Positions 24,572 to 44,482 of a DNA stretch of 64,000 bases are shown piece by piece. Position numbers and translations under genes: made by a program. The notes under the pieces are model-generated. The model had not been told where the DNA came from, ran no database searches, and was given only the letters and a program-made list of their open reading frames with translations. The stretch is from IMG/VR virus record IMGVR_UViG_3300028920_000049; one strand, given 5' to 3'. The first letter of the stretch is position 1. Every line of letters starts with the position of its first letter. Source of the DNA: a virus.

Positions 24572-24647
24572 TGGAAGCCCCGGCCGGATTCTAACCGACA
24601 TTCCCTCAGTTGCAGTGAGGAGCCTTTGACATTTTAGCTACGGGGCT
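24572..24647 (-). tRNA. tRNA-Cys(GCA)
   Basis: Loop CUGCAAC, U73, CCA encoded. Confidence 0.88.
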
Positions 24648-25669
24648 GTGATCTCTTCTAGAATTACACTATAAGTAGCTAGTTCGTCAACTATGATCTG
24701 ATAAAAGTCCTTAGCTAGATGCTCCATGCCCATGAGTCCTGGCTTTATTCGGTCACCAGCGACTAGCTTGGTCACGACTGAGGTAGTCAGGGCAGTAGTT
24801 CTTTGCATGGCCGTCAAACCATCCTGGCCTTTCTCTACCATTCTGAACTGCCTGCCATCAATGTCGCAGAAGAGCACGAGTTGATCCTCTACTTCCCTAC
24901 ATTTATGCAATTCTCCAATGAACTTCTCTTTGTCCTTCAGAAGCGGGAGCACCTTTTCGACATGCCCAGGATGGCGCATGGTCTTCTCAAACAGGGTCTT
25001 CACATTCTTGAGCCTGAGAGCGCTTCTAAGGCCGTCAGTAAGAAAAGCCTCCATCATACCTACCCCAGGTATGTAGACCTCTTCTACGCCTGATAGAGCG
25101 TCTCTGTGGATGATTGTCCCTCTGTCGATCAGCGCGGCCTTTCTGACATACTCCTCATAGAGGTCCTCGAGAGACCATGTAGTAGCGTAACCATAGGGGG
25201 CGTTAGGATCCGCTGCCATTCCCCCTACATAAAGTCTGCCTGCTTCTATTCCACCATTAGCATGGTGTACATAACCAGCGACCAGGTTTGTCAGACCAGG
25301 TGCTACTCCTGTATCTATGATGATCGGGATCTTCTGAGCTAGTGCCCATTCGTTCCAATCTTCCCAATGCTTGTAGAGCTCCTGGTAGGATACGTCTACT
25401 AGGGGGACCTTGTGCTTGACTGCAGCCTCCCAGACTAGGAGAGCCATTCTAGAAGGCAACGCATTAACCACTACGTCTACCTGGTCTACCAGCCTGTGAA
25501 TTATTTCAGGCTTTAGATCACAAGCTAGTGTCTTGACTGTAGAATCTTTGAGTCTATCGTTGATATTCTTATCGGCTACTGTGACGGTGTGGTTGGTATC
25601 TATGGAGATATCTTCGGCGACTACAGATCCGATGTGCCCACCGCCTAGAACTAGAATACTTTTACCCAT
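24638..25669 (-). CDS. saccharopine dehydrogenase / lysine 6-dehydrogenase-like oxidoreductase
   Basis: Rossmann ILVLGGGHIG, DTGVAPGLTN, YVGG...P, EAFLTDGL and TAMQRTTA. Start MGKS at 25669 (the track extension is tRNA-Gly sequence). Confidence 0.85.
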   Translation of the reverse strand: MGKSILVLGGGHIGSVVAEDISIDTNHTVTVADKNINDRLKDSTVKTLACDLKPEIIHRLVDQVDVVVNALPSRMALLVWEAAVKHKVPLVDVSYQELYKHWEDWNEWALAQKIPIIIDTGVAPGLTNLVAGYVHHANGGIEAGRLYVGGMAADPNAPYGYATTWSLEDLYEEYVRKAALIDRGTIIHRDALSGVEEVYIPGVGMMEAFLTDGLRSALRLKNVKTLFEKTMRHPGHVEKVLPLLKDKEKFIGELHKCREVEDQLVLFCDIDGRQFRMVEKGQDGLTAMQRTTALTTSVVTKLVAGDRIKPGLMGMEHLAKDFYQIIVDELATYSVILEEITAP

Positions 25670-25678
25670 TGAATCTCC

Positions 25679-25754
25679 TGGTGCGGGTAGTGGGTCTCGA
25701 ACCCACGGCTCCGAACTTGGCAAGCTCGTGCTCTACCTGCTGAGCTATACCCGC
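25679..25754 (-). tRNA. tRNA-Gly(GCC)
   Basis: Loop UUGCCAA; CCA encoded. Confidence 0.95.
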
Positions 25755-26017
25755 GTCATTTTCTTCCATGGTCTCTCTGACCACCATCCTCGGATGCCAT
25801 CAGGGTGGCCCTTGTGGATGGCGATGATAGCCACGAAGAAGACTATTGGAACAAGCATTCCAACTGCTGTCAATGGGCCAGGGCCAAAAATTCCAGTGGC
25901 AATCCATGCTCCCAGAAGTGCCACTCCGACCATCCCACAAAGGAATAGTACTGTGAGGAACATGTCCCAGAAAGCTGGGTTTCCTTCGTAGAGCCAGCTC
26001 CAGATTTTACCCCACAT
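25745..26017 (-). CDS. small membrane protein
   Basis: Two hydrophobic segments; stop lies inside tRNA-Gly. Confidence 0.6.
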   Translation of the reverse strand: MWGKIWSWLYEGNPAFWDMFLTVLFLCGMVGVALLGAWIATGIFGPGPLTAVGMLVPIVFFVAIIAIHKGHPDGIRGWWSERPWKKMTRV

Positions 26018-26276
26018 CTTCTAGTCCTTTGATAGGTTTCTTTAGTTCTTTTAGGGTTATTCTTGAGTAATGAAATTCACCTAGCTCTGCCTTGAGCAAG
26101 TCAGCCGCTAGTATGAGCTCAACTGCGTCGTGTTCTGTGTCTAGTATGTCTATCATGGCCTGAGCGGCCGATGCTACTCTCGAGGCTCTGCAGTACCAGC
26201 AAAGAAACTTTTCACCCTGTTCCACAGGCTTGGGCGGTTTAACTCTTTTTGGTCTGTTGCATTTGACGCAGGGCAT
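26007..26276 (-). CDS. hypothetical zinc-binding protein
   Basis: CVKC...CWYC with an AGGAG RBS. Confidence 0.5.
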   Translation of the reverse strand: MPCVKCNRPKRVKPPKPVEQGEKFLCWYCRASRVASAAQAMIDILDTEHDAVELILAADLLKAELGEFHYSRITLKELKKPIKGLEDVG

Positions 26277-26500
26277 GGGGTGCTCCTTGGACTATACAGG
26301 AAGATATTGGCTGTCTTCTGTTGCAGGGTTTGTAGGGCTAGTTCATGTAGTTCAGGATCTAATCCTTCAAAGTCAAAGACTGCAGAGAGAGTTCCTACCA
26401 CATGTCCATCTTGAAAGAATTGTAAGAAGTTGGTGAAGATAGCCTTGGGTTCTGACTCAACAACTACGCCTGTGATTCCCTTACCAAATGTAATGCTCAC
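26174..26500 (-). CDS. hypothetical protein
   Basis: ATG overlaps the MazG stop; C-terminus overlaps the next ORF. Confidence 0.5.
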   Translation of the reverse strand: MSITFGKGITGVVVESEPKAIFTNFLQFFQDGHVVGTLSAVFDFEGLDPELHELALQTLQQKTANIFLYSPRSTPCPASNATDQKELNRPSLWNRVKSFFAGTAEPRE

Positions 26501-26829
26501 CTGTTGTCTCCGTCACCCTTGATGACATTTCTCTTGTTGCGTTCTAGAAGCTTATCGACGTTCATGTCAGCTACCATATTAAATGGGCAACCGAGCTCCC
26601 AAGCTACCATAGCTAGGTACCACAGAATGTCTCCGCACTCCTTGAGCAGGTCGTTCCTGACTTCAGGAGTCAGTGTCTTATCTCCGCGCATGAGCTTCTT
26701 TACCTTATTCTGAAGCTCTCCTGCTTCTCCACCGAGGGCTAGCGTACAATACACTAGGCCCATGGTATCTCCCTCACTGGGGTACTTTCTGAGAGTTGCG
26801 CAGATCTCTTGGTATTTGTCAAAGTCCAT
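26497..26829 (-). CDS. MazG-like nucleoside triphosphate pyrophosphohydrolase
   Basis: LALGGEAGELQNKVKK...KECGDILWYL...NVDKLLER. Confidence 0.88.
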   Translation of the reverse strand: MDFDKYQEICATLRKYPSEGDTMGLVYCTLALGGEAGELQNKVKKLMRGDKTLTPEVRNDLLKECGDILWYLAMVAWELGCPFNMVADMNVDKLLERNKRNVIKGDGDNR

Positions 26830-26831
26830 GT

Positions 26832-27056
26832 TTAGTCCTTTGTTAGGTCAACAAAGACCAGGTTATCGACGTCGCTTTCGATCTTTATGGGTTCAGATGC
26901 AGCATTTGTAAATACCTGATACTTACAGATGGGGCACTCTAGAACATCGCCCGCATAATACAAGTCCTTCTGTACCCTAGCTAATCTACCAATAGCCATG
27001 GACTTCATCTTTGTATTACACTTCACACAAAGTGTTCCGATCATATTGTTCTCCAC
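26832..27056 (-). CDS. small zinc-ribbon protein
   Basis: CVKC...CPIC. Confidence 0.5.
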   Translation of the reverse strand: MENNMIGTLCVKCNTKMKSMAIGRLARVQKDLYYAGDVLECPICKYQVFTNAASEPIKIESDVDNLVFVDLTKD

Positions 27057-27077
27057 TTTGTTATCTTTCTATCCTTG

Positions 27078-27150
27078 AGCCGATGAGAGGACTTGAACCC
27101 CCAACATCCTGATTACAAAACAGGTGCTCTACCAATTGAGCTACACCGGC
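27078..27150 (-). tRNA. tRNA-Thr(UGU)
   Basis: Loop UUUGUAA. Confidence 0.94.
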
Positions 27151-27398
27151 TTGACTAACAATCCGTAATTATCTCCATAGGCAGGAGGAGTAATATCAAT
27201 AAGCTTCCTGTACTGCTCTACTCCTGTAACTTCCCATGTATTACCATTAATCTGAATTCTATCGCCTACTTTGACTTCGGTAATTTCTGGGTGATCATGC
27301 TTGTTCACATTGAACACCTGTCCACGTCCAGATATTTGGAATTCATCATATTTGTCGAAGGAATATGTCTCATTCGGTATATTTCTGCGGTGCGTCAT
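27141..27398 (-). CDS. hypothetical protein
   Basis: 85 aa; ATGA-coupled to the upstream ORF; stop inside tRNA-Thr. Confidence 0.6.
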   Translation of the reverse strand: MTHRRNIPNETYSFDKYDEFQISGRGQVFNVNKHDHPEITEVKVGDRIQINGNTWEVTGVEQYRKLIDITPPAYGDNYGLLVKPV

Positions 27399-27628
27399 TC
27401 GTTCATTTCCTTGAGGTAGGCTTTGTAAGCATGGTATCTCCCCCCAGTATGTGCTAGACCAAAGTAGTTCCCACAGTCACATTTGTAGTAGATCTGGACC
27501 TGAGGTTCAGGGTCGTCTACGACTTTGATTTCATCTTCGATAGCTACATCGTGGCACACATCACAGCGTTCCATCTCGGTGAGCCAGTAGGGACGTTTAC
27601 ACATTATTCTACCGTCCCTTCGATCCAC
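27395..27628 (-). CDS. small zinc-binding protein
   Basis: CDVC...CDC. Confidence 0.5.
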   Translation of the reverse strand: MDRRDGRIMCKRPYWLTEMERCDVCHDVAIEDEIKVVDDPEPQVQIYYKCDCGNYFGLAHTGGRYHAYKAYLKEMNE

Positions 27629-27789
27629 ATGTCAGCTTCGCAGAACCTGTCGTACTCTTCCCAGCCACCTTTGTCAGTCAGGCCAGGGATCTCGTCGGCT
27701 ACCTTATTGATAGCTTCTTGCTCACTCTCAGCTTCAACAAGCTTCATGTGGGTAATGCTCTCGCATACGCATACTTTGTATGTCTTCAT
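27604..27789 (-). CDS. hypothetical protein
   Basis: 61 aa with an AGGAG RBS. Confidence 0.55.
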   Translation of the reverse strand: MKTYKVCVCESITHMKLVEAESEQEAINKVADEIPGLTDKGGWEEYDRFCEADMWIEGTVE

Positions 27790-27802
27790 CTTTATCTCCT
27801 GT

Positions 27803-27878
27803 TGGAGCCGGAGATGGGTATCGAACCCACTGCCTCTTCCTTACCAAGGAAACGCTCTACCGTCTGAGCTACTCCGGC
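27803..27878 (-). tRNA. tRNA-Thr(GGU)
   Basis: Loop UUGGUAA; CCA encoded. Confidence 0.95.
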
Positions 27879-27879
27879 T

Positions 27880-27956
27880 TGGTGGGTCTGGTGGGAATTG
27901 AACCCACAACTTCTCGCTTAAGAGGCGAATACTCTGCCTAATTGAGTTACAGACCC
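27880..27956 (-). tRNA. tRNA-Lys(CUU)
   Basis: Loop CUCUUAA; CCA encoded. Confidence 0.95.
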
Positions 27957-27957
27957 A

Positions 27958-28155
27958 TTAGCTCTTGCCACTTGCTCCCAGGATCAGGACGACCAGGAAG
28001 GCACCGAACCAGCTACCTGCTGTGACCGGAACTGAGAAGCCAGCGACCGCTGCTCCACCAATGAGGTTGATGCCTGCAATGAGAAGCAGGGGACCAACGA
28101 CTACTCCAAGGAACAGGATTATCAACACTAGCACAACTTTGTTGAAGCTGTCCAT
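27958..28155 (-). CDS. small membrane protein
   Basis: Two hydrophobic segments. Confidence 0.55.
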   Translation of the reverse strand: MDSFNKVVLVLIILFLGVVVGPLLLIAGINLIGGAAVAGFSVPVTAGSWFGAFLVVLILGASGKS

Positions 28156-28169
28156 CTTTGTCTTCTTTC

Positions 28170-28445
28170 TTATGCTTTGTAGTGGCCTCTACCACCACGT
28201 GAACCACGACGCCGTCTTGCGTCGATATTCTCTTGGTTTCTGATTGCTCTGACCTGTGCCATGGTGCTGTAGTAATTCTTCACCTTGCCATCAGCAGCAG
28301 TCTTATCGATGTCCATCCACTGTCCACCAGCGGTGTTCATCTGACCATTGATGACCTTGTGCGCATTCACACCTTTGCGCGGGGACCAGTGGTTTCTTCC
28401 TGGTCCTTTGTCAGGACGCTTCCTACCACCCTTGATTGTGGCCAT
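28170..28445 (-). CDS. hypothetical basic protein
   Basis: Likely start MATIKGG at 28445 (TAATG overlap). Confidence 0.55.
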   Translation of the reverse strand: MATIKGGRKRPDKGPGRNHWSPRKGVNAHKVINGQMNTAGGQWMDIDKTAADGKVKNYYSTMAQVRAIRNQENIDARRRRGSRGGRGHYKA

Positions 28446-28885
28446 TATTCTTTCCTTTCTGCTTTCCTTGCATCTATCTCTAGAGGATTCATCTTGTATG
28501 GATCCCCTCTTATCGCACCAATTAGTAGTCCAAAACAGTACACAAATGGGAACAGCGGACCGAGTATGAACCACTGTATGCAGTGTCGCCTCTCGTGTCT
28601 GCAGGTCTTCTCAATAAACCTTCTGTCCCATGAGTGTAGGCTATCGTCTCGGTAAATGTAGGCGCAGGGTAGTCCGAGTCCACCCCAATTGGACCACCAC
28701 TTACTGTGGAGCTTGTTTAGGTTGGGGTTATCTCGATCAATTTTGAACCTGGCGATAAAAGGCCCATCCCATTGTTTGAATTCAATGTCCTTGAATATCC
28801 AGGAGGGCAGAATGTAGAACAACCATACTAAAATGGTCGCTGGGAGACACCAGAGGGCTCCCAGAAGATGTGCTAGTAGCTTCAT
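28445..28885 (-). CDS. hypothetical membrane protein with an HExxH motif
   Basis: TCRHERRH and hydrophobic segments. Confidence 0.55.
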   Translation of the reverse strand: MKLLAHLLGALWCLPATILVWLFYILPSWIFKDIEFKQWDGPFIARFKIDRDNPNLNKLHSKWWSNWGGLGLPCAYIYRDDSLHSWDRRFIEKTCRHERRHCIQWFILGPLFPFVYCFGLLIGAIRGDPYKMNPLEIDARKAERKE

Positions 28886-28902
28886 GAAAGCATTCTAGCA
28901 TG

Positions 28903-28978
28903 TGGTGCGGGCGAAGGGAATCGAACCCTCAGCATCCAGCTTGGAAGGCTGGCACTCTGCCAATTGAGTTACACCCGC
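28903..28978 (-). tRNA. tRNA-Gly(UCC)
   Basis: Loop CUUCCAA; CCA encoded. Confidence 0.95.
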
Positions 28979-28979
28979 A

Positions 28980-29056
28980 TGGTGCTCCCGGAGGGGCTCG
29001 AACCCTCATTTCCAGATTGAAAGTCTGACTACCTGACCTTTGGTAATGACGGGAGC
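28980..29056 (-). tRNA. tRNA-Glu(UUC)
   Basis: Loop CUUUCAA; CCA encoded. Confidence 0.9.
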
Positions 29057-29059
29057 TTG

Positions 29060-29132
29060 TGGACCGGGCCGGAATTGCACCGACGACACCCTGGGCTTCA
29101 ACCAAGTGCTCTACTATCTGAGCTACCGATCC
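29060..29132 (-). tRNA. tRNA-Phe(GAA)
   Basis: Loop UUGAAGC. Confidence 0.9.
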
Positions 29133-29368
29133 TCTTCTTCATGTACTTTCTCTACTATAGAGAAGAATTCATTTAAGTCCATTACTCTGACACCCTCTTG
29201 CTGCATACATATCTTAGCTAATTCCCAGGCTGTATCTAGAGCTGTCTCGTAGACAGCAAGACGCTCGAGCAGGTCATCTATCCTATTTCTCTGGACCTTT
29301 GCTAACTCTTCCCAAAGAGCTCTTTCTTTATCGTCCATTACTCTTCCGTTGTCAACTCTTGTTGACAT
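29123..29368 (-). CDS. hypothetical protein
   Basis: Coiled-coil-like; stop inside tRNA-Phe. Confidence 0.55.
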   Translation of the reverse strand: MSTRVDNGRVMDDKERALWEELAKVQRNRIDDLLERLAVYETALDTAWELAKICMQQEGVRVMDLNEFFSIVEKVHEEEDR

Positions 29369-29475
29369 CCACTGTAGTTAGTTGCTACGTTACATGTAGC
29401 GAAGGCTGCGAAGGCTAGGATTACTACCAGGCCCACGACTTTTACGATGTTATCTTGATGCATTGTCTATTCCTT

Positions 29476-30633
29476 TCACTTCTCCCCCAGTGCGGCGCGG
29501 GCGATAGCATAAACACGGCCCCGCCAATCATCGCAGTAGGCGCATTCGCCAAACTCCGCACGTATTTGCCGCAACGCATCCCGCAGCCGGTCCCGCTCGG
29601 CCTCGGCTTTCTCAACACGCTTCAACAAATCGGCGACGCCACGTGAAAACCCATCAGCTCTGGCTGTCTCTGCGTCCCGCTCGGACTCGGCTTTCTCGGC
29701 CGCCTCTTTCCATCCAACGAGCCGGCGGCGGTAGTTGTCGCGCTCGCGGGTGAGTGTGGCGACTTCGCGCTTGCGGTCTGCGTGTTCAGCGCTACGCACG
29801 CTGACCTGAAAATTGATGTCCTTCTCCAACTCGGCAATGCGGGCGCGGAGCGAGGCAACGCTATCGTGCTTCCAGCTATCGATTTCATCGCGCAGGTCTG
29901 CCTCGGCTCTATCCGCGCGCTGCTGCTCGTACCTGAATCCCTCCTCGGCAGCGTCCCGTTCGCGGGTGGCGCACACCAGCGCTCCGATGATCGCCGTTAC
30001 GGCATCCGCAACAGAGCCATCCCCGATGCCGAGGCGGTCACCGACGTCGGGCATTGACATGATGGCGTCGAGTTCTGCTCCATACCGGTCGCGCTCCTCG
30101 TGTAGGATTTCGTTCTCGCGGGTGAGGGTGGCGACATCTGAGAGTGGGTGGCCGGTGGCGTTCGCAACGGCTCCCTGTAGCTCCTGTGCCTGCGCCTCCA
30201 TCTCGGCAATGCGGGCGCGGCTTTTTAACTCGGCATCCTGCCACTGCCGCTTAAGCCTACGCTCACTCGCAATCTCTTCCCGCGCCTGCCGCAGGTCGGC
30301 GATGAGGCGAATGGTTTTCGGATCCTTGATTGTGGCTCTGCGCTCCAGGTCTTCCCACTTCCGCAACTCCTCCTCGCTCACCGGCTCGCTCGGCTCGGGG
30401 TCGACAAGGCCGAGGCGGACTGCTACCGGAATATAGTCAGACTCGGGAGTGGGGGTTTCCGACTCGGGAGCGACCCGGGCCAAGTATTCGTCTATCGCAT
30501 CGACCACCCGGAGGCCAGAGCCATCGATCTGTGCCCGCGCCTCACGCAGCAACTCGATGGCTTCGGCGAGCTTCTCCGTTGCCTCTTGTAACTGTGCACC
30601 TGAAGCGGATTTGTTTCTATCAAAATGGTGCAT
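29476..30633 (-). CDS. coiled-coil phage protein in a GC-rich segment
   Basis: 385 aa with repeated RARIAE/TLTRE heptads and a C-terminal CAYC. Confidence 0.65.
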   Translation of the reverse strand: MHHFDRNKSASGAQLQEATEKLAEAIELLREARAQIDGSGLRVVDAIDEYLARVAPESETPTPESDYIPVAVRLGLVDPEPSEPVSEEELRKWEDLERRATIKDPKTIRLIADLRQAREEIASERRLKRQWQDAELKSRARIAEMEAQAQELQGAVANATGHPLSDVATLTRENEILHEERDRYGAELDAIMSMPDVGDRLGIGDGSVADAVTAIIGALVCATRERDAAEEGFRYEQQRADRAEADLRDEIDSWKHDSVASLRARIAELEKDINFQVSVRSAEHADRKREVATLTRERDNYRRRLVGWKEAAEKAESERDAETARADGFSRGVADLLKRVEKAEAERDRLRDALRQIRAEFGECAYCDDWRGRVYAIARAALGEK

Positions 30634-30849: not shown

Positions 30850-30867
30850 GATTTCCTCGCTTTCTTG

Positions 30868-30942: not shown

Positions 30943-30945
30943 AGG

Positions 30946-31064
30946 AGGTGAGAATTAGCGACTAGAGAAGAAAATACCGCCCTTTGCGGCCATGTCAGCT
31001 TGTCCCTTTCGGGTGCTATCATAAGGAGTTGAACCTTGAAGTATCTCTAACCTTCACTTGACCT
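30946..31064 (-). ncRNA. Y RNA-like (YrlA-type) copy 1
   Basis: AGGU...ACCU ends, motif GUGAAGGUUAGAGAUACUUC, T-arm AAGG-UUCAACU-CCUU, and two further hairpins. Confidence 0.75.
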
Positions 31065-31067
31065 TGT

Positions 31068-31206
31068 GAGCAGTAGAGGGATTGGCTCTTACTGCTCTGT
31101 CGAGGTTACCAAGCGTTCACTTGGCGGGCTACTGCTTCCGGCTGGGTCACCCTGATACCTTCTCGGTACCACCTCTAGGACATACCAGTTGATCACACCG
31201 ATATGT
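31068..31206 (-). ncRNA. unidentified structured RNA (multi-stem domain flanked by hairpins)
   Basis: GAGGU/ACCUC closes several short hairpins, including GUACC-GAGA-(A)GGUAU; hairpin GAGCAGUA/UACUGCUC. Confidence 0.5.
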
Positions 31207-31210
31207 CTTG

Positions 31211-31254
31211 TGGAGTCGATGGGGCTTGAACCCATTGCAAATCCCGTAGACTCC
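31211..31254 (-). ncRNA. 44-nt tRNA-like minihelix (acceptor stem and T-arm only)
   Basis: GGAGUC/GACUCC-A acceptor stem, T-arm AUGGG-UUCAAGC-CCCAU, 12-nt linker. Confidence 0.6.
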
Positions 31255-31265
31255 TGATATTATCT

Positions 31266-31350: not shown

Positions 31351-31845
31351 ATGATTACAAGACAATGTAAACAGTGTCAAGAAGAATTTCAGCCAGATCC
31401 TCGAGAAGTTAAGCGAGGGAATGGTTATTTCTGTTCCTTGTCCTGTTCTGCTAAGTTCAATAGCCTGAAGCGTTCAGCTAAGCTAAATAAACCCAATGTC
31501 TCTTGTGCCTATTGTCAGAAGAGATTCTATAAGAGCCCTAGTAAGCAAAAGAAGTCCAAGTCAGGCTTGTTCTTTTGCTGCCGAGCTCATAAAGATCTAG
31601 CTAATCGTCTGGATGGAATTAAGGCGATCCATCCTCCGCATTTTGGTCAGGACAACTCTAGGCATTATCGCACTCTGGCTCTACGTAAATTGCCCAACCG
31701 ATGTAACCGATGTCCTTATGATAAGTTCGTTGAGGCTTTAGTTGTACATCATAAAGACCATGATAGGAGCAACAATAAGTTATCTAACTTAGAGGTCCTT
31801 TGCCCTACTTGTCATTGGGAGCATCATCTAGGCTTAACAAATTGA
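31351..31845 (+). CDS. HNH homing endonuclease (the only well-supported plus-strand gene)
   Basis: Tandem CxxC...CSxxC zinc motifs and VVHHKDHDRSNNKLSNLEVLCPTCHWEHH. Start at 31351 after AGGAG. Confidence 0.88.
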   Translation: MITRQCKQCQEEFQPDPREVKRGNGYFCSLSCSAKFNSLKRSAKLNKPNVSCAYCQKRFYKSPSKQKKSKSGLFFCCRAHKDLANRLDGIKAIHPPHFGQDNSRHYRTLALRKLPNRCNRCPYDKFVEALVVHHKDHDRSNNKLSNLEVLCPTCHWEHHLGLTN

Positions 31846-31856
31846 GCTACGACCCC
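31840..31856 (-). pseudogene. tRNA 5' remnant
   Basis: GGGGUCGUAGCUCAAUU; first 14 nt identical to the tRNA-Lys(UUU) 5' end. Contains the HNH stop on the other strand. Confidence 0.6.
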
Positions 31857-33089: not shown

Positions 33090-33166
33090 TGGTGGGGTCG
33101 GAGGGATTCGAACCCTCGACCGCCTGGTTAAAAGCCAGATGCTCTACGCTACTGAGCTACGACCCC
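33090..33166 (-). tRNA. tRNA-Lys(UUU)
   Basis: Loop CUUUUAA; CCA encoded. Confidence 0.95.
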
Positions 33167-33394
33167 ATTCTTGCCTGATACTTCGTCTTGCATCTCTTTC
33201 ATAATACTGGGTGAGATATGCACGCTGTCAAGCACAATACATTGCTTCATAGAGTGGCATATGTCACACTCTGCTACTTCTTCTGATTCCCTGATAGGCA
33301 GGGGGAAGCGCATGGCGCATGATTTGCAGTATTTCATGGTTCGTTTGCTGGTCACTTCAGCCTCTTGCTGTCTGTCTGTCTTTCCGAATCCCAC
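33149..33394 (-). CDS. small zinc-binding protein
   Basis: CKSC...CDIC; stop inside tRNA-Lys; start uncertain. Confidence 0.5.
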   Translation of the reverse strand: MGFGKTDRQQEAEVTSKRTMKYCKSCAMRFPLPIRESEEVAECDICHSMKQCIVLDSVHISPSIMKEMQDEVSGKNGVVAQ

Positions 33395-34496: not shown

Positions 34497-34517
34497 GATT
34501 AGTCCTTTATTAGTTTG

Positions 34518-34560
34518 TGTGGATGGCGAGATTCGAACTCCCACGCCCTCACGGACACTA
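34518..34560 (-). pseudogene. 3' half of a class II (Leu/Ser-type) tRNA
   Basis: Variable arm UGUCCGUGAGGGCG, T-arm GGGAG-UUCGAAU-CUCGC, acceptor 3' strand CAUCCAC-A. No matching 5' half next to it. Confidence 0.6.
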
Positions 34561-34788
34561 AAAATCTAACAGCTCCAATCCTGTCGCACATTTGGGTACT
34601 GCTGAGCCAAAGAGAACAGGGAAATCAATATACATGTCTTTTACTATATGTTTCATCCACTCTGGTGTTGGAGTTTTGGTGACGATCCAGTATCGCCATC
34701 CAGTTGAAGTCATCTCTCTGTTGGCATCACAGTTAGCACATTCTTCATGTCTATCCTGTGTTACCCACTGGTGTTCCTTCTTGTCCAT
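34558..34788 (-). CDS. hypothetical protein
   Basis: 76 aa with a GGAG RBS. Confidence 0.5.
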   Translation of the reverse strand: MDKKEHQWVTQDRHEECANCDANREMTSTGWRYWIVTKTPTPEWMKHIVKDMYIDFPVLFGSAVPKCATGLELLDF

Positions 34789-34799: not shown

Positions 34800-34886
34800 T
34801 GGTGGGCGAGACAGGATTCGAACCTGCACATCCGAAGATACACGGGCCTAAACCGTGCGCGTATTCCTGAGTTCCGCCACTCGCCC
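34800..34886 (-). tRNA. tRNA-Leu(UAG)
   Basis: Loop UUUAGGC, long variable arm, CCA encoded. Confidence 0.93.
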
Positions 34887-35147
34887 TTTATTCTTCCCGC
34901 TATTGTTAAAGGTCTGAGCATGACAGTTTGGACAAAGGATTTGCAAATTTTCTATCCTATTGTCCCACCTATCTCCATTAATATGGTGAAGCTCCAATGG
35001 AATAGGGTAACCGTTCCATTCACTTCTGCTGCACCTCTCACAATTTCTGTCTTTTAGTCCGTCCTCTATTAGCTTAGTCTTTAGTTTGTGGCTATTGATG
35101 AGCTTACCATCTTTCTCAAGGTAATCAATTGCCGGTGTTCTTTGCGT
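34848..35147 (-). pseudogene. startless HNH endonuclease remnant (not in the ORF track)
   Basis: Hand translation: KLKTKLIEDGLKDRNCERC...PLELHHINGDRWDNRIENLQILCPNCHAQT. In frame after the def TAG TAG; ends at the tRNA-Leu anticodon. Confidence 0.8.
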
Positions 35148-36722: not shown

Positions 36723-36728
36723 TTATTG

Positions 36729-36811
36729 TGCGGGTGAAGAGAGTCGAACTCTTACGCCCCGAAGGACACGGGTTTTTGAGACCCGTCTGTCTACCATTCC
36801 ATCACACCCGC
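36729..36811 (-). tRNA. tRNA-Leu(CAA)
   Basis: Loop CUCAAAA; long variable arm. Confidence 0.93.
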
Positions 36812-37104
36812 ATGCGTCTTAGAAAAGCCTTGAAACAATCTACCACATTTTTGTGAAGAATGGGATGCTCTCCTAGTTTGTAGTCATATTTCGTCTCGAG
36901 TTTACTATCACAGATAGTACAAGTATAGTGATCATGCTCATCGTAGGTCCAGTTACCGGGCTCCATGCCGATTTCAGCTAGCTCTTCCTTGACGACTCGT
37001 CTGATCTGGTCCTCAAGTGTTTCAACACTGCTTCCCAGTTCAGCCACTCGACGGACCCGCTCCCGCATTTCGGACATACTACTGGTTGGGGGTTTACCTG
37101 CCAT
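36802..37104 (-). CDS. hypothetical protein (start may be 36966)
   Basis: CTIC...HPILH; stop inside tRNA-Leu(CAA). Confidence 0.5.
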   Translation of the reverse strand: MAGKPPTSSMSEMRERVRRVAELGSSVETLEDQIRRVVKEELAEIGMEPGNWTYDEHDHYTCTICDSKLETKYDYKLGEHPILHKNVVDCFKAFLRRMRV

Positions 37105-37408: not shown

Positions 37409-37756
37409 TGGAGCTGCCGGGATTCGCACCCGGGTCCTAAACTCTTCCAGTTACCTTCGTATGACCATAAGGGGCGCTAGTTGCCCAGCGCCTCCACCAG
37501 GTGAGTTTCGGGCCTCATCACCAGGAGTACCTATTCTATTGATCTGTTTAAGTTCACATCTCAGCTAGGTATTAACCCACCCGTCTTCTGTTGCCAGGCC
37601 AGGGTTCCAGGCCCCGCTTAGGAGCTTACGCTGCCTGAGCAAATGCTACGGTGTTATCGTTAGCAACTAAATGGTTGAGTATTGATTATAGTGAGCCATA
37701 CTCTCTCACTGGTCATCCAGTTTCCTTCAATAGCCTAGTCGAATCTATTCAGCCCC
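37409..37756 (-). ncRNA. ssrA: tmRNA, tag ANDNTVAFAQAA
   Basis: 5' GGGGCUGAAUAGAUUCGAC, G3-U acceptor pair, 3' GGGUGCGAAUCCCGGCAGCUCCA, resume frame GCU AAC GAU AAC ACC GUA GCA UUU GCU CAG GCA GCG UAA. Confidence 0.93.
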
Positions 37757-38000
37757 CTTTATGTTTGTTTGCTCTGACTACTACCATGACCTCAACTGCT
37801 GTCACCTCGTTAGCTGGTAGTGCGTCAATAAATTCGCCTCTATGAACGTTCCAAGCTGACTTCTTATTGTCATCAGACAGCTTGAGGCATAGAGAGGTCA
37901 TTGGATCAGCTCTATGTCCGCTGATATAGTATTCCCCTACTGCTAGGTCTCTAAAGAAGCAGTTATAGGTCCCGTCTCTTGAGTCTCTGATATGTATCAT
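37749..38000 (-). CDS. hypothetical protein
   Basis: Start MIHIRD at 38000; stop inside the tmRNA 5' end. Confidence 0.55.
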   Translation of the reverse strand: MIHIRDSRDGTYNCFFRDLAVGEYYISGHRADPMTSLCLKLSDDNKKSAWNVHRGEFIDALPANEVTAVEVMVVVRANKHKGG

Positions 38001-38104: not shown

Positions 38105-38129
38105 GAGGGCAGGACCTCTCATCCTGCTT

Positions 38130-38310
38130 CGAGAATTAACTCGCCACACCATAGTGGAACCTTTCTTTGAAGGCCTAAGTCATCCGTTTCGTGGAGCACG
38201 GTGAACTTCCGTCTTTAAGCGATCTACCTCGATATTCGCGCGGGGCCGGGCAGGGCAACCTAGGCTTGTACGCTTCCCCACTTGCACCCTCGAGGTTTGT
38301 TCACTTCTCG
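38130..38310 (-). ncRNA. unidentified structured RNA of about 181 nt (6S-like or divergent Y-like)
   Basis: CGAGAA/UUCUCG closing stem, nested helices AGUGG..AA/UUCCACU and GCCUAGGU/ACUUAGGC; no ORF between tRNA-Val and tRNA-Tyr. Confidence 0.5.
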
Positions 38311-38314
38311 CTTG

Positions 38315-38387
38315 TGCGCGGTGACGGGCTTGAACCGCCGACCTATTGGGTGTAAACCAATTGCTCTCCCAACTGAGCTAACCGCGC
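38315..38387 (-). tRNA. tRNA-Val(UAC)
   Basis: Loop UUUACAC. Confidence 0.94.
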
Positions 38388-38608
38388 TCTTCGTCTTCTG
38401 CTTTTCGATCTTTATCTATGTAAGTGATAATAGCTGTCACTGTCAAGTCTGGTTCGTTTGTATCTTCATCAATGCTAGGCTCAATCTCCGTGACGTTTAG
38501 GCCAAACGCTCCGTCTGGTGTGTCTAAGGCAACCCCTCCCTCGAGGAGTTTACCTATCATGCCCCGAGGGACAGTGAAAACGATAGTGTCACCTACATCA
38601 GCTGCCAT
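38378..38608 (-). CDS. hypothetical protein
   Basis: 76 aa; stop inside tRNA-Val. Confidence 0.55.
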   Translation of the reverse strand: MAADVGDTIVFTVPRGMIGKLLEGGVALDTPDGAFGLNVTEIEPSIDEDTNEPDLTVTAIITYIDKDRKAEDEERG

Positions 38609-38635
38609 AGGAACAGACTGACATGCTGCTGAGGG

Positions 38636-39013: not shown

Positions 39014-39206
39014 CTGCTACTGGAGTTACCTCCAGTTCAGGGTGCTCGGTTTGACCCACTTTCACCTGTTCAATCATTCTCTCCATTAGGTCCTTGAGTA
39101 TGGCTATGCCCTGCTCAAAATGGACCTTGTGAAACAATGCTTCATAGGCTTCTAGGTTATCTGGATCCCACCTTACACGAATTTCTGGATAGTCCTCATC
39201 AGGCAT
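38988..39206 (-). CDS. hypothetical protein
   Basis: 72 aa after a GGAG RBS. Confidence 0.55.
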   Translation of the reverse strand: MPDEDYPEIRVRWDPDNLEAYEALFHKVHFEQGIAILKDLMERMIEQVKVGQTEHPELEVTPVAGGEDDVLN

Positions 39207-39208
39207 TT

Positions 39209-39556: not shown

Positions 39557-39565
39557 GTCTTTCCC

Positions 39566-41338
39566 TTAGAAGTTCTCCCTGATGTACTCGATAGTGAAGA
39601 CTTGCTTCTCTTCGGTCTCACCAGTTTCCTTGTTCACGACGACCTCAGTCCTCAGTCCTTCGAACTCGAGGATGGTGTCGAGCAACTTCTCTGAATAGCC
39701 GGCTACCAAGTTGGTCTTGGTGTCCTTCTGCTCAGTCAGGGCACGGCCATAACCAGCGAGGTCCAGACAGTGAAGGAAACACTTCTTGTTTTTCTCCTTC
39801 CTGTAGTCCCTGATTAGCTCCTTGACTGACCTTCTGTCGCGACTTCTGCTGCCCCAGTAGTAGTCAGAGTGGCTACCATAGGTCTGCATGTCAGAGATGA
39901 TGATCATGCGGTCAAATGTGATGTTGTTTTGTTTGAGCGCCCACTTGAGTGCCTCTTCTGCGTTGGTGCTGTGACCAACTCGGAGCGTAGCAACCTCGTC
40001 AGCGATGTCAAACACGTTACCACTAGCCCGTGGGTTGATCTGAGCTGGTTTCCATGTATCACCGAACGCACCGATTACGGAGTTAGGCTCGCTCTTCTTG
40101 GCAATGATGGTACCCAGAATGCAGGCAGCCTTATTCATGCTCATCTGAGAGTTGCTGCTGATCGGGTTGCCCATGCTACCAGAGTTGTCAACTGCGATGA
40201 GACTGGTGCCTGGAATGTCATCCAGAGCATCGATCACCTTCTCAACGGCCTCGCCCAGAGCGTCGTACAGCTTCTTCTCCTGACCGGTGAGGTTTGGAGC
40301 CTGAGGAGCGTAGTACCTGTTCACGCTGAGCTGACCGGTGATTGCGTCCCTGGCTGCCAGGAACCTGTGGGGGAGCTGCTTGCTCTTCACAGCACCGTTG
40401 ATCAGCTTGTCGCACACCATCTGGATGTACTTGGCATCCACGCCAGCCTGCAGGATATTCCTGAGGTTACGCAGCATAGCCATGTACGGAAGCTGGTTGC
40501 TCTCAATGAGATGTTCCCAGATATCCTTGGTGTTACCGAACTGAGAGAGCAGAACCTCCCAGCCAGCGCCACTCTTCTTGGCAAACTGCTGAGCTCGAGG
40601 CCCGAATTCCTTCATCTTGCTGAGGTTTTTCCTTGCAGCGATGACTGGAGTAGCCTTTGGATCTGTGACCTCACCTGTCTTCAGGTAGTGGTCTAGTGCC
40701 TTCGGAAGCGGGTAGTTTGTACTTCTGTCGATCATCTTGAGGACGTCTGAGAAGTATGGGCGGTGCTGACCCTCATACTTCAGGAAGTCCCGCTCCTTGA
40801 ACTTGCTGAACGCATCAGCGAGACCACGCTTCAGGCTGTTTGGAAGAGCAGTCTGAGTGCCGTACAGAGACCTGGAGGCCACGAACACCTGTTTCAGCTC
40901 GTCTGCCCTCTGAATGACCTTCGGACAGTAGGTGCGTACGTACTGCTTGGTCTCCGCACACTGTGCAGCGACTGCAACCAGCACCTGAGGTGTGGTCCTG
41001 AGCTTCATCTCCTTGCGTGCCCAGTGGGCAATCGCTAGGAGGTCACGAGGACTCTCGGACTCAGCGATCTCGTGCGCAGTGTTGATGATCAGCTGTGCAT
41101 GCTCATCAAAGTCCGACTCGTCGTAGTTGTACCCACGATCCATCGCCTGAGGATCGGTTGGGTAGTACTTCGGCTCGTTGAACATTGATGACCCTAGGAT
41201 GGCGATCATGCGCTCAGAGGGATCCTGAATCTCATGGACCTGGGTTCCCACGGCACTGGTTGCCATGACCTCGCGAATGCTGGTCTTTCCGTCCTTGACC
41301 TTGCGCTTGAGATTGGTCTTAACCTTGCTCTTCTTCAT
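39566..41338 (-). CDS. Ro60/Rsr-like TROVE domain RNA-binding protein with a vWA domain
   Basis: AHWARKEMKLRTTP, IQRADEL, LPYMAMLRNLRN, SKQLPHRFLAA, MIDAS IAVDNSGSM, IIISDMQ and LVAGYSEK. Confidence 0.92.
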   Translation of the reverse strand: MKKSKVKTNLKRKVKDGKTSIREVMATSAVGTQVHEIQDPSERMIAILGSSMFNEPKYYPTDPQAMDRGYNYDESDFDEHAQLIINTAHEIAESESPRDLLAIAHWARKEMKLRTTPQVLVAVAAQCAETKQYVRTYCPKVIQRADELKQVFVASRSLYGTQTALPNSLKRGLADAFSKFKERDFLKYEGQHRPYFSDVLKMIDRSTNYPLPKALDHYLKTGEVTDPKATPVIAARKNLSKMKEFGPRAQQFAKKSGAGWEVLLSQFGNTKDIWEHLIESNQLPYMAMLRNLRNILQAGVDAKYIQMVCDKLINGAVKSKQLPHRFLAARDAITGQLSVNRYYAPQAPNLTGQEKKLYDALGEAVEKVIDALDDIPGTSLIAVDNSGSMGNPISSNSQMSMNKAACILGTIIAKKSEPNSVIGAFGDTWKPAQINPRASGNVFDIADEVATLRVGHSTNAEEALKWALKQNNITFDRMIIISDMQTYGSHSDYYWGSRSRDRRSVKELIRDYRKEKNKKCFLHCLDLAGYGRALTEQKDTKTNLVAGYSEKLLDTILEFEGLRTEVVVNKETGETEEKQVFTIEYIRENF

Positions 41339-41370
41339 TGCTCTTCTCCTTGAGAGTAGTTACTGCTCAA

Positions 41371-42171
41371 TTACTTGGTCTCAAAACCGAGTGCGACCAA
41401 GCTATCGAAATCCAACGTGTATTTCTCTTCGTCCCTGAGATGCATGCTCACTAGGCTCAGACTCTCTGCCTCAGCCTTGAGTACCTTGATATGCCCACCA
41501 ATCAGAACAAGCTTCTTCTGGGCATCAGTCACTTTGCGACGCAGAGTATTCAGCCTTGCTGCTGCCTTGTCTACCTGTGTTGGGAGCCCAGTGGTTCCAT
41601 TGGTTGCACGTGCCCTCTGCTGGCGTTCTGGGTACTCCTGGCCTTCTGCCATATCGGCTGCGCAGGGCTGGATTGCCAGGTTACCGTCTTGCATCCCGGC
41701 GTAGGCGCCTGGAAGACATCCCGAGACTCCCGAGGATGCTCTCACAACACTTTTTGACTGATCCAGCTCTTTTGCGAGCTCATCGATCTCTTTGAAACGC
41801 TCCTGGAACTTATCGAAGCCGTCTTCGAAGACCACAGCCTTTTCACCGACTAGCTTATCGGTTTCCTTGTTGAAATCGAACTCAGTGTCGGCCCACGCCT
41901 TAAACACTTCGTCCAGCTGCCTCTGGTAGGGGCGTGCTGCGGCTACCTTGTCGTTGCTACGCTCCTGGTAGAACTCACGAAGAGCCATGAGTTCCTTCTC
42001 TTTGTCGTTTACGAACGCAGAGACGTCTTTGGTCGCTCCCTCGAGTCTCTGAACTTCGCCAGAGATCTCGTCAACTCTGCGAGCGACTGCCTCTTTGATT
42101 TCTTTCCCTGTCTTGGCAAAGAGGAAGCCAACGACAGTATCACCTAGCAGGCGAGGCTGAAACTGATTCAT
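41371..42171 (-). CDS. coiled-coil hypothetical protein between Y RNA copy 2 and Ro60
   Basis: Start MNQF at 42171 after AAGGA (track extension is Y RNA sequence). Confidence 0.65.
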   Translation of the reverse strand: MNQFQPRLLGDTVVGFLFAKTGKEIKEAVARRVDEISGEVQRLEGATKDVSAFVNDKEKELMALREFYQERSNDKVAAARPYQRQLDEVFKAWADTEFDFNKETDKLVGEKAVVFEDGFDKFQERFKEIDELAKELDQSKSVVRASSGVSGCLPGAYAGMQDGNLAIQPCAADMAEGQEYPERQQRARATNGTTGLPTQVDKAAARLNTLRRKVTDAQKKLVLIGGHIKVLKAEAESLSLVSMHLRDEEKYTLDFDSLVALGFETK

Positions 42172-42194
42172 TTTATTGTCCTTTGTCGAAAAAT

Positions 42195-42310
42195 GGGCCG
42201 AGGAAAGTCGAATAGAGTGGATTACTGTGGGACTTGAACCCACGACAGTCATTTCACAATAATGATGCCCTACCAACTGGGCGAAGTAACTCGATTCTTC
42301 ACTACGGCCC
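42195..42310 (-). ncRNA. Y RNA (YrlA-type) copy 2 with a full tRNA-like domain
   Basis: GGGCCG/CGGCCC stem, GUGAAGAAUCGAGUUACUUC, D-arm GCCC-AGUUGGUA-GGGC, anticodon-like arm, T-arm GUGGG-UUCAAGU-CCCAC. Lies about 0.9 kb upstream of Ro60. Confidence 0.85.
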
Positions 42311-42462
42311 TTGTGCTCTACCGAAACTTTCTTTCCGGTGGGGCTATGGCGTCTTCGATAGCGGCTCCGAGAAAAAGACCGGCAATGCCGGCTAATAGGA
42401 GCATAGTGGAGGGAATGAATATAGGCATGACAATAGCCAAGGTCAAGCCTTCTCTGAATGTC

Positions 42463-42852
42463 TTAATCATCTTTCTCTCCTATTAATGCAGGATGTGGAT
42501 CTCCTGCAAATAGAACGCGTCCAAATCTTGGGTCCTTGAAGCAGATTCTCTTTGAAAGACCATGAAGCTCATAATCTACAGTTGTTCCGCGCAGAACGTC
42601 AAGATCTCCTGTATCGCACCAGACTTTGACCTCATCCTTGTAGCAAGCTACCAACACGTCTGAGGAAGTAATGTTGTCTTTGTCTTCACAGGCTAGCCAG
42701 AGAACACTATTGACCAGTCCGATTCTATAACAAATGTCTTTTGTGTTCATTTCCTTTTTGAATGATGCCAGGAATTCTAATACTTCTGTCGAGAAGATGA
42801 GCTTCATCTTTTCCCTTTCTCTGATTGCATCTAGCTTACATTTCCAACACAC
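42463..42852 (-). CDS. hypothetical protein
   Basis: 129 aa; start may be the internal MKLIF. Confidence 0.55.
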   Translation of the reverse strand: MCWKCKLDAIREREKMKLIFSTEVLEFLASFKKEMNTKDICYRIGLVNSVLWLACEDKDNITSSDVLVACYKDEVKVWCDTGDLDVLRGTTVDYELHGLSKRICFKDPRFGRVLFAGDPHPALIGEKDD

Positions 42853-43073
42853 TAGCGTTTCTCCGGATCTGCTGAGAACAAATGACCGATATCAGCTAGG
42901 AATTCGTCGCCAACATCCTGCAGGAATTTATCAAATGCCTGACGGATAACCTGGTTTACTGAGCTTTCATTTATTACACCAAGGGTATGCCCCAGGTGAG
43001 CAAAGGAGACTCTTTCATTCATGTGGTGTAGAGCCGCCAGGAATCTTGTATTGAGCTTTTCTTTATCTGCCAT
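42852..43073 (-). CDS. hypothetical protein
   Basis: 73 aa. Confidence 0.5.
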   Translation of the reverse strand: MADKEKLNTRFLAALHHMNERVSFAHLGHTLGVINESSVNQVIRQAFDKFLQDVGDEFLADIGHLFSADPEKR

Positions 43074-43097
43074 TGCGTAGCCCTGAAGTATGCTTAG

Positions 43098-43499
43098 TTA
43101 CTTAATTTCTAGCCTTTTGGGCTTAGATTCTTCTCTCTGTGGAGCCTTAATGGTCAAAAGACCATTATCGTATTTGACCTCAGCTGACGCTAGGTCATAA
43201 TTGCCCGAAACTTCTCTTCGCTTCCAGGTGAATGCCTTCCCAGCATGAAGATTGTCTCCGGATTCCACTTTCTTTCCCGTCACAGTGATGCAATCACCAG
43301 TGACCTCGACTGACAGGTGGTCCTCGGGGTAGCCCGCTAGTGCGAACTGGATAATGAGGTCTTCTCCATAATTCACGCGGGCCTCTGGAAAACCAGAAGA
43401 AGCATGAACCTGGGGAAAGAACTCATCAAAGAGCCTGTCAAATTCTTGGAATGAGATCAGCGGAGCTCTCATTGAGCTCCTCATAAGTGCATTTGTCAT
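43098..43499 (-). CDS. small heat-shock protein (Hsp20, IbpA-like)
   Basis: FALAGYPEDHLSVEV, AEVKYDNGLLTI and C-terminal LEI. Confidence 0.88.
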   Translation of the reverse strand: MTNALMRSSMRAPLISFQEFDRLFDEFFPQVHASSGFPEARVNYGEDLIIQFALAGYPEDHLSVEVTGDCITVTGKKVESGDNLHAGKAFTWKRREVSGNYDLASAEVKYDNGLLTIKAPQREESKPKRLEIK

Positions 43500-43560
43500 A
43501 GCAAATACCTCCTTCAGTAAGCAAGGTTTACCAAGCCTAGCTCCTCAATAGGCAGCTAGT
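43497..43560 (-). promoter_or_regulatory. ROSE-like RNA thermometer
   Basis: GUAAA-CCUUGCUU-ACUG-AAGGAGG-UA-UUUGC-UAUG: the UUGCU motif pairs with the SD with a bulged G; upstream CUAGCU/AGCUAG hairpin. Confidence 0.7.
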
Positions 43561-43573
43561 ACTCCAGGGCTAC

Positions 43574-43663
43574 TGGCGGGTAGAGTAGGATTCGAACCCA
43601 CGGACGCCGGAGCGTCTCCGGTTTTCAAGACCGGTGCAATTAGCCAGACTCTGCCATCTACCC
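43574..43663 (-). tRNA. tRNA-Ser(UGA)
   Basis: Loop CUUGAAA, long variable arm, G73, CCA encoded. Confidence 0.95.
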
Positions 43664-43921
43664 TTATAAAATCACTCTAAAAAAAATTTCTCAAATTTGT
43701 CCTATATAGGACTTTTGACCTTTCATTCTACTAGCTCCAAAACAGGCTGAACAGTCATTTTTTAGAACAGCGCTCTCTAGAACTCCAGGTCATACATTGT
43801 AAATAAAATATAAGTAATATTGGGACACAATGGCATTACAAGTTGCACTCATGTTCCCTTTATGACCATTCCTGCTGGATTTATGGAGCTAGGAATATCT
43901 CCTATCCGGATATGGTCGTTG

Positions 43922-43995
43922 CAGGGCCGACGAGATTTGAACTCGCGATCTCTGGCGTGACAGGCCAGCGCTTTAACACACTAAGCTACGACCCT
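43922..43995 (-). tRNA. tRNA-Asp(GUC)
   Basis: Loop CUGUCAC; G73. Confidence 0.93.
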
Positions 43996-44482
43996 ATTTG
44001 CCTAATAGAACCAATAGAGGATCTATATGGCACTTCTGAAGCCCAATGTCAAACTCGGTTTTCACCAGTTTGTCCATATGAGGCTCCATGTCTGTATCAT
44101 CGTCAATAATGGCGAATCTGTCAATATCGCTTCTCTCAGAAAGCCATTTATCGATCTCTTGACCTCTTTTTGACCATCTGCCGGTATAGTCGCCATTTTC
44201 GTCAAATAGCCGAAACGCTCGAGGCGTTCTAGCGATGATTGGAGTCCTTACACCTTGAGAAGCGATGTACTTCTTTGTGCTTTCAAAGCGTTCTTCAGTG
44301 CCATTTCGCCAGCTAGAGGAAAGCACTAAGAATGCGCCGGTCTCGTTACAGATGTAATTTAGTAAATGGACGCAATTTGGATCAAATTCGTAATGATGCT
44401 CTCCGTCCCAAGGGATCATTGGCCGTTCAATTGTTTTCCTATTGTTGAGAACGCCATCTATATCGAGAAAGATGATTTTCAT
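43994..44482 (-). CDS. HAD-superfamily phosphatase (Swiss Army Knife RNA-repair type, HAD_SAK_2-like)
   Basis: MKIIFLDIDGVLN, VLSSSWR, RGQEIDKWL and AIIDDDTD. Confidence 0.85.
   Translation of the reverse strand: MKIIFLDIDGVLNNRKTIERPMIPWDGEHHYEFDPNCVHLLNYICNETGAFLVLSSSWRNGTEERFESTKKYIASQGVRTPIIARTPRAFRLFDENGDYTGRWSKRGQEIDKWLSERSDIDRFAIIDDDTDMEPHMDKLVKTEFDIGLQKCHIDPLLVLLGK

Follow-up and report, generated by a model that had tools for sequence, protein, structure and literature searches.

Protein genes that take their stop codon from the next tRNA or tmRNA in the tRNA array of a marine sediment phage

Why should so many protein genes of one phage end inside the tRNA gene that follows them, and what would become of their messages when that tRNA is matured? 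The question is raised by the IMG/VR virus record IMGVR_UViG_3300028920_000049, of which we analysed a stretch of 64,000 nucleotides (the window), part of a larger phage contig (at least 101,880 bases) that comes from marine sediment metagenomes. The region from 24.3 to 50.4 kb holds 29 tRNA calls and a single transfer-messenger RNA (tmRNA), all on the minus strand and alternating with protein genes of the same strand (ARAGORN, Rfam). A preliminary description had listed nine open reading frames (ORFs) that stop within or at the next tRNA or tmRNA; it proposed that tRNA maturation turns their messages into non-stop mRNAs, and that protein turnover is thereby linked to tRNA processing through the phage's own tmRNA and ClpP, with simple genome compaction as the alternative. 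We found the overlaps to be real, conserved and much more frequent than in other viral tRNA arrays, and we regard compaction as their probable cause, with non-stop mRNA, in our best reading, as a tolerated by-product.

Overlapping stops, their frequency and their conservation

A frame-by-frame check found all nine ORFs to stop at the positions first reported, and in every one of them the stop codon either follows tRNA position 1 or includes it (Table 1). Six of the stops occupy tRNA nucleotides 8-10, as TAG in five cases and as TGA in tRNA-Leu(CAA); the others lie in the D-loop of tRNA-Lys(UUU), at nucleotides 6-8 of the tmRNA, and across the 5' end of tRNA-Asp as T/AG at -1 to +2 (a slash marks the boundary of the tRNA throughout). 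Mis-set tRNA boundaries were rejected as an explanation, the 5' ends of tRNA-Cys, tRNA-Asp and tRNA-Lys being supported by cloverleaf folds. Spurious ORFs were rejected on two grounds: when the spacers were shuffled and searched with the same rules, overlapping ORFs numbered 1.3 on average, 6 at most and never 9 in 2000 shuffles, and eight of the nine ORFs are under purifying selection, as judged from their orthologues in related phages (dN/dS 0.04-0.50). The exception is the 83-aa orphan ORF, for which neither a homologue nor a recorded contig was found, the Atlas leads being all under 0.9. The position at nucleotides 8-10 was also rejected as a special signal; it needs no special explanation, because a stop triplet stands there in 872 of 1499 tRNAs (58%).

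The overlapping genes have no function in common in family searches: Pfam families were assigned to two of the nine (saccharopine dehydrogenase and HAD_SAK_2), and none of the nine matches a nuclease family. While the stops in the preliminary description were correct, we have moved the likely starts of four ORFs to 25669 (343 aa), 29338 (71 aa), 33355 (68 aa) and 38000 (83 aa), and its list lacked two frames. One is an HNH endonuclease frame at 34848-35144, which makes a tenth overlap, is absent from the relative L253 and is probably a decayed homing endonuclease gene; it holds the only HNH match among these frames. The other is a mini-ORF of 20 codons at 24499-24561 (minus strand), starting from 24561, where a strong ribosome-binding site directly follows tRNA-Cys, and stopping at nucleotides 33-35 of tRNA-Ile; its slot measures just 1-31 bases in relatives, and it is probably the stub of a deleted gene. 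A further candidate, the ORF at 49421-49750, which would stop at nucleotides 6-8 of an ARAGORN tRNA-Met, was dropped, as that element has no Rfam hit, the ATG has no Shine-Dalgarno sequence directly before it, and only residues 34-63 match a relative.

For comparison with other tRNA-rich phages, we collected some 240 IMG/VR loci that contain tRNAs in tandem or ends resembling those of a tmRNA, and counted the 148 having at least three tRNAs. A junction was defined as an ORF of at least 50 codons whose stop lies no more than 60 nt from a tRNA start; simple ORF calls were used with no gene finder, and related phages were treated as separate, kinship being ignored. Overlap was found at 9 of the 15 gene-to-tRNA junctions of the window (9/16 if an atypical element at 42217-42292 is admitted) and at 50/226 (22%) in the other viral arrays (P=0.003), which places the window above the background, as it stands above chance in the shuffles. 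The window and its relatives together give 36 overlaps at 55 distinct junctions, these junctions being not independent and two of them involving the doubtful Met element. Background overlaps have their mode at nucleotide 8 (21/50). An unrelated viral array, L160 (IMG/VR 3300037067_027683), has five of seven genes entering tRNAs, and its 102-kb record (28% complete) contains no tmRNA; the 88-102 kb region of Bxz1 has no annotated overlap. Literature searches turned up no paper on gene-into-tRNA overlap as a general phenomenon. Such overlap is common in phage tRNA arrays, at about one junction in five of our sample, and can become the rule of a lineage; annotators should therefore neither trim nor discard ORFs of this kind.

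The relatives of this lineage are contigs found through protein searches (L003-L012, L253 and L256). Close relatives were not obtained from IMG/VR with the HAD or dehydrogenase proteins as queries, from JGI metagenome contigs with ClpP, or from GenBank phages with the tmRNA, and contigs from three DNA runs gave no informative variant at the gene-tRNA junctions. Relatives keep the overlaps of the dehydrogenase gene with tRNA-Cys, the 90-aa ORF with tRNA-Gly, the 71-aa ORF with tRNA-Phe, the 100-aa ORF with tRNA-Leu, the 76-aa ORF with tRNA-Val, the HAD gene with tRNA-Asp and the 68-aa ORF with tRNA-Lys, the borrowed stop being retained by orthologues of the first six. The dehydrogenase stop at nucleotides 8-10 survives a 12-base in-frame insertion near the gene end, and in the more distant L011 this gene enters tRNA-Cys in another frame and stops at nucleotides 12-14. 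In L003, where tRNA-Asp has been swapped, the HAD stop still lies across the cut site, and the 76-aa ORF of L253 ends at tRNA-Val with TA/G at -2 to +1. The stop-less state is not invariant across orthologues: it is lost in the 85-aa gene of L005 and the 68-aa gene of L256, each of which has its own stop there, and gained in a GGDEF gene, which ends on a stop of its own in the window and on nucleotides 8-10 of tRNA-Asn in L004. A 70-aa gene overlaps tRNA-Ala in L256 only. The gene-into-tRNA layout is thus a trait of the lineage, within which single junctions switch.

Table 1. Positions in the window of the overlapping genes, the RNA genes that they enter, and related genes (nt, nucleotide; ORF lengths in amino acids)
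Feature	Position	Strand	Remarks
ClpP-family protease gene	18646..19401	-	Ser-His-Asp triad positions intact; 5 kb outside array; conserved at 88%; no link to overlaps shown
tRNA-Cys(GCA)	24572..24647	-	ARAGORN, Rfam, fold
Saccharopine/lysine-6-dehydrogenase-like gene, 343 aa	24638..25669	-	Stop TAG = tRNA-Cys nt 8-10; dN/dS 0.10
tRNA-Gly(GCC)	25679..25754	-	ARAGORN, Rfam
90-aa hydrophobic ORF	25745..26017	-	Stop TAG = tRNA-Gly nt 8-10; dN/dS 0.28
tRNA-Thr(UGU)	27077..27150	-	ARAGORN, Rfam
85-aa ORF	27141..27398	-	Stop TAG = tRNA-Thr nt 8-10; dN/dS 0.31
tRNA-Phe(GAA)	29059..29132	-	ARAGORN, Rfam
71-aa ORF (81 aa from first ATG at 29368)	29123..29338	-	Stop TAG = tRNA-Phe nt 8-10; dN/dS 0.04
tRNA-Lys(UUU)	33090..33166	-	ARAGORN, Rfam, fold
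68-aa ORF with two CxxC pairs	33149..33355	-	Stop TAG = tRNA-Lys nt 16-18; dN/dS 0.08
tRNA-Leu(UAG)	34800..34886	-	ARAGORN, Rfam
HNH endonuclease frame, N-terminally truncated, start-less (tenth overlap)	34848..35144	-	Stop at tRNA-Leu(UAG) nt 37-39
tRNA-Leu(CAA)	36728..36811	-	ARAGORN, Rfam
100-aa ORF	36802..37104	-	Stop TGA = tRNA-Leu(CAA) nt 8-10; dN/dS 0.50
tmRNA, tag ANDNTVAFAQAA	37408..37756	-	G3-U wobble present; CCA not fully encoded; ARAGORN; Rfam 92 bits vs cut-off 47
83-aa orphan ORF with good Shine-Dalgarno	37749..38000	-	Stop TGA = tmRNA nt 6-8
tRNA-Val(UAC)	38314..38387	-	ARAGORN, Rfam
76-aa ORF	38378..38608	-	Stop TAG = tRNA-Val nt 8-10; dN/dS 0.10
tRNA-Asp(GUC), first base A1	43921..43995	-	ARAGORN, Rfam, fold
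HAD_SAK_2 phosphatase gene, 162 aa	43994..44482	-	Stop T/AG straddles tRNA-Asp 5' end; dN/dS 0.07
CCA-adding/poly(A) polymerase family enzyme with HD domain	57271..58656	-	Context: CCA not encoded in half of the tRNAs nor in the tmRNA

Compaction, processing and rescue

Compaction, the alternative named in the preliminary description, fits these data better than the link to tmRNA and ClpP. We consider it probable that the layout arose by a compaction ratchet, in which the back-up stop U8-A9-G10, being near-universal, makes spacer loss permanent. Tight packing is general in the window: gene-gene junctions overlap in 35 of 98 cases with a median gap of 7.5 nt, a rate not significantly below that of gene-tRNA junctions (10/19, P=0.20). 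It extends to the other side of the tRNAs, where a Shine-Dalgarno-like motif lies no more than 10 nt from the tRNA 3' end in 11/30 cases in the window, 27/88 in the lineage and 104/1407 elsewhere, the last count including tRNA-tRNA junctions, which inflates the contrast. At 4 of the 15 CCA ends of the window the motif even shares the last A of CCA (CCA/GGAG), as in the dehydrogenase gene and the upstream tRNA-Gly, against 0/1100 in the background. The frame giving the earliest stop is used in 9/10 overlaps of the window, 18/18 of the relatives and 34/50 elsewhere; this preference points to selection to keep the overlap short, for which a designed non-stop message would have no need.

The steps of the ratchet may be pictured as follows. 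In a co-oriented array of genes and tRNAs, the spacers on both sides of each tRNA would be worn to nearly zero; when a gene then lost its own stop, U8-A9-G10 or another early stop would add just 2-5 residues, a change that would be tolerated and nearly neutral. The frame would thereafter be locked, because a one-base insertion or deletion would send the ribosome deep into the tRNA, and overlaps would accumulate and persist. The high overlap rate would arise because spacer loss and the back-up stop make the loss of a gene's own stop nearly neutral and then lock the frame.

As to expression, we infer co-transcription, processing and the fate of the cut messages from this arrangement. Long read-through transcripts are likely, because terminator-like sites are few and at chance level (14 on both strands vs 16.9 +/- 4.3 in shuffles), and full-length protein would be made from such long precursors before they are processed. 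A ribosome terminating at nucleotides 8-10 would cover the acceptor stem and D-arm and exclude simultaneous RNase P at the tRNA 5' end, so that RNase P would be delayed. After the cut, the upstream message would have no stop, and that of a gene between two tRNAs would probably have lost its ribosome-binding site to 3' processing as well; it would be waste, cleared by any tmRNA-SmpB, of host or phage, together with RNase R, and some tmRNA tagging of trailing ribosomes would be expected as a by-product. To this extent the preliminary description stands, since the coordinates, taken with what is established on RNase P chemistry, imply that 5' maturation would leave these messages without a stop. 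It is very improbable that no such consequence arises, with protein and tRNA drawn from separate transcript pools, either through internal promoters or through cut fragments that are never translated. Promoter-like sites in the array do number 31, against 20.5 +/- 4.4 in shuffles, and ribosome-binding sites abut tRNA 3' ends, so that excised fragments may be untranslatable; however, a tRNA with a coding leader must still be cut from any transcript starting in or before the gene, and the chance-level count of terminator-like sites also argues against separate pools.

The second part of the preliminary description, a designed circuit, fared less well. It would be an ArfA-like scheme spread over many genes, in which programmed non-stop mRNAs are tagged by the phage tmRNA, their products decay through the phage ClpP, and the turnover of proteins thereby depends on the maturation of tRNAs. 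The tmRNA has a tRNA-like domain, the G3-U pair and an intact tag ending in AA, is conserved in L253 and, on these sequence features, looks functional; the protease keeps its triad and is well conserved, the lineage is enriched in overlaps, and the tmRNA is itself overlapped by two unrelated ORFs. The rates of overlap nevertheless speak against the circuit. Overlap is not enriched with a phage tmRNA (15/88 in tmRNA-carrying phages vs 10/36 in those lacking one, P=0.22), and under stricter gene calls the difference runs opposite to the predicted direction (3/45 vs 5/18, P=0.037). In these counts, tmRNA status was taken from whole records, the lacking group was limited to records with a completeness of 60% or more, and kinship was again ignored. 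Wildcat carries a tmRNA but shows no annotated overlap, and in T5, where overlaps do occur, no tmRNA exceeds the Rfam cut-off. With the E. coli proteins as tblastn queries, neither SmpB nor ClpX was found in the window, which is only part of the contig; a weak ClpX match (E=0.002) is a generic AAA gene at 11874-13667. ClpP alone does not read the tmRNA tag, and host tmRNA is available anyway. The readers of the tags are ClpXP, ClpAP and Lon (PMC8012679), so that the phage ClpP would not suffice by itself. Together with the choice of the earliest stop, these points make the circuit quite unlikely, though if the phage tmRNA did serve these messages, this would be a concrete answer to why phages carry tmRNA. 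When the tmRNA of the window is aligned with that of L253 (2479-2822), message and pseudoknot are near-identical and both halves of the tRNA-like domain differ, a pattern suggestive of an exchange of that domain or of its faster evolution.

Several observations weigh against compaction as the whole explanation. The overlaps persist at 48-93% protein identity, with synonymous sites near-saturated, and two non-homologous ORFs, the 83-aa ORF of the window and a 74-aa ORF of L253, both end at nucleotides 6-8 of the tmRNA. At 60-65%, overlap in the lineage is roughly three times as frequent as in the background, and the excess remains when tight junctions only are counted (9/13 in the window vs 50/162 elsewhere, P=0.011). 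Stops straddling the cut site (TA/G or T/AG) occur at 7 independent loci of the lineage, against 4 just outside it, and other phages show the reverse (5 straddling vs 28 just outside; lineage vs others P=0.004); TA/G is found at 7 of the 27 lineage junctions in that frame, where 6.7% is expected from base composition. The straddling excess fits weak selection for the earliest stop after spacer loss, and it also fits selection that keeps stops on the tRNA side of the cut.

On the latter view, the removal of the stop could be a selected means of dampening, in which tRNA maturation shortens the life of the message and caps its output through decay and rescue by the host, the phage tmRNA and ClpP being not specifically involved. 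The straddling stops and the long life of the overlaps, including the frame change in L011 and the tRNA-Asp swap in L003, favour this reading, and control of this type has a precedent in the proposal made for T4 segB (PMC2330249). In that gene, however, the stop already stands 5 nt ahead of tRNA-Arg and is nonetheless believed to be lost, so that an overlap is unnecessary; the genes of the window are metabolic enzymes and small proteins without evident toxicity, and four orthologue pairs switch state. We therefore judge selected dampening to be unlikely. A bolder version, in which the lineage actively keeps stops at or beyond the RNase P cut site as an array-wide timer, the maturation of tRNAs and tmRNA switching genes off and late copies being tagged by the phage tmRNA and proteolysed, seems distinctly doubtful to us. 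Taken together, the regulatory readings are possible though somewhat unlikely, and they stay alive because stops straddle the cut site, overlaps are enriched threefold and the tmRNA is overlapped more than once.

Other features of the array

Near the array lie genes for ClpP, peptide deformylase, a Ro60/TROVE protein, a reverse transcriptase and a CCA-adding enzyme. The reverse transcriptase gene (22073-23947, minus strand) adjoins an HNH gene and is retron-like, lying a little downstream of the tRNA array and of a long hairpin, and its neighbours are unchanged in all relatives covering the region. About 0.9 kb upstream of the Ro60/TROVE gene is the atypical tRNA-like element mentioned above (42217-42292, minus strand), which ARAGORN calls Thr here and Ser in L004; it is a candidate Y-RNA-like gene, and Rfam gave no YrlA match at this position. 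Two structured, ORF-poor spacers of the array (30943-31262 and 38105-38313, minus strand) match no Rfam family, and one such spacer opens with a tRNA-minihelix-like hairpin and closes with the anti-Shine-Dalgarno-like CACCTCCT just before tRNA-Arg.

Some tRNA genes of the lineage appear to have been broken, rebuilt or replaced. An HNH gene at 31351-31845 on the plus strand, opposite to the array, is flanked on one side by the 5' end of tRNA-Ala and on the other by a 19-base orphan tRNA 5' piece (about 31838-31856), and L253 has an intact tRNA-Ala beginning with nearly this orphan piece; the tRNA-Ala of the window looks to have been split and rebuilt by HNH insertion. In L005 (3926-4508), a tRNA-Thr 5' half broken just after the anticodon is followed by a 169-aa ORF and then by a second tRNA-Thr, which constitutes an insertion into a tRNA gene. 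A remnant tRNA-Leu without D-arm (34506-34581, minus strand) is entered by an ORF ending at 34558, and its slot in L253 and L256 holds an intact tRNA-Leu(GAG) preceded by a short ORF ending TA/G. The slot of the window's tRNA-Thr(UGU) is filled in L007 (2718-2789) and L253 (14316-14387) by a tRNA of normal length with a UCA anticodon (SeC according to ARAGORN), possibly an opal suppressor or a decayed tRNA. A GC-rich 385-aa gene (29476-30633, minus strand), absent from L005 and L253, at which the Logan contigs fall apart into pieces with many joints, looks like a recent repeat-containing insertion.

Comparison with known systems

In animal mitochondria, genes abut tRNAs, whose excision produces messages with a terminal U or UA, the ends that T/AG and TA/G stops would also give; mitochondria complete UAA by polyadenylation, and we know of no such step established for phage messages. 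The window is unlike mitochondria in that most of its stops lie wholly inside the tRNA. The arfA gene of E. coli produces a programmed non-stop mRNA, which is cut upstream of the stop and whose product is subject to trans-translation (PMC8012679). There the cut depends on a stem-loop of the gene's own, through RNase III or termination, and the feedback logic is clear, whereas in the window RNase P would make the cut at a tRNA, the genes have nothing to do with rescue, and orthologues change state. Huge phages (Al-Shayeb et al. 2020, PMC7162821) resemble the window in combining a phage tmRNA with many tRNAs and translation helpers, to which the window adds peptide deformylase and a CCA-adding enzyme; no SmpB was found in the window, and a term search of that paper gave no passage on gene-tRNA overlap.

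Closer to our case is the 2008 proposal of Brok-Volchanskaya et al. that tRNA-maturation cleavage parts the T4 segB ORF from its stop and lowers its expression, which was extended to endonucleases of T5; the control was proposed, not measured, and tmRNA is not invoked in the passage concerned (PMC2330249). segB differs from the genes of the window in being a single homing endonuclease gene with its stop at -8 to -6, outside tRNA-Arg, and because of this distance overlap is not required for stop loss. Orthologous genes of the present lineage ending with their own stop, with TA/G or at nucleotides 8-10 form a natural series of junction states for asking whether tRNA processing limits expression of the upstream gene, a limit for which literature searches turned up no measurement since that proposal.

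The nearest parallel is T5 (NC_005859), which likewise has co-oriented tRNA genes interleaved with protein genes, and in which hegC, hegD, T5.057 and T5.069 have annotated stops inside the next tRNA, at nucleotides 12, 21, 4 and 22, respectively. In T5 a minority of junctions is concerned and two of the four genes are HNH homing endonucleases, whereas in the window a majority of junctions overlap, mostly with non-nuclease genes and mostly at nucleotides 8-10, and the tmRNA is included. Nothing in the present data ties the overlaps to the phage tmRNA or protease, and the window, not unique in kind, is an extreme, conserved and unusually dense example of the known T5-like arrangement.

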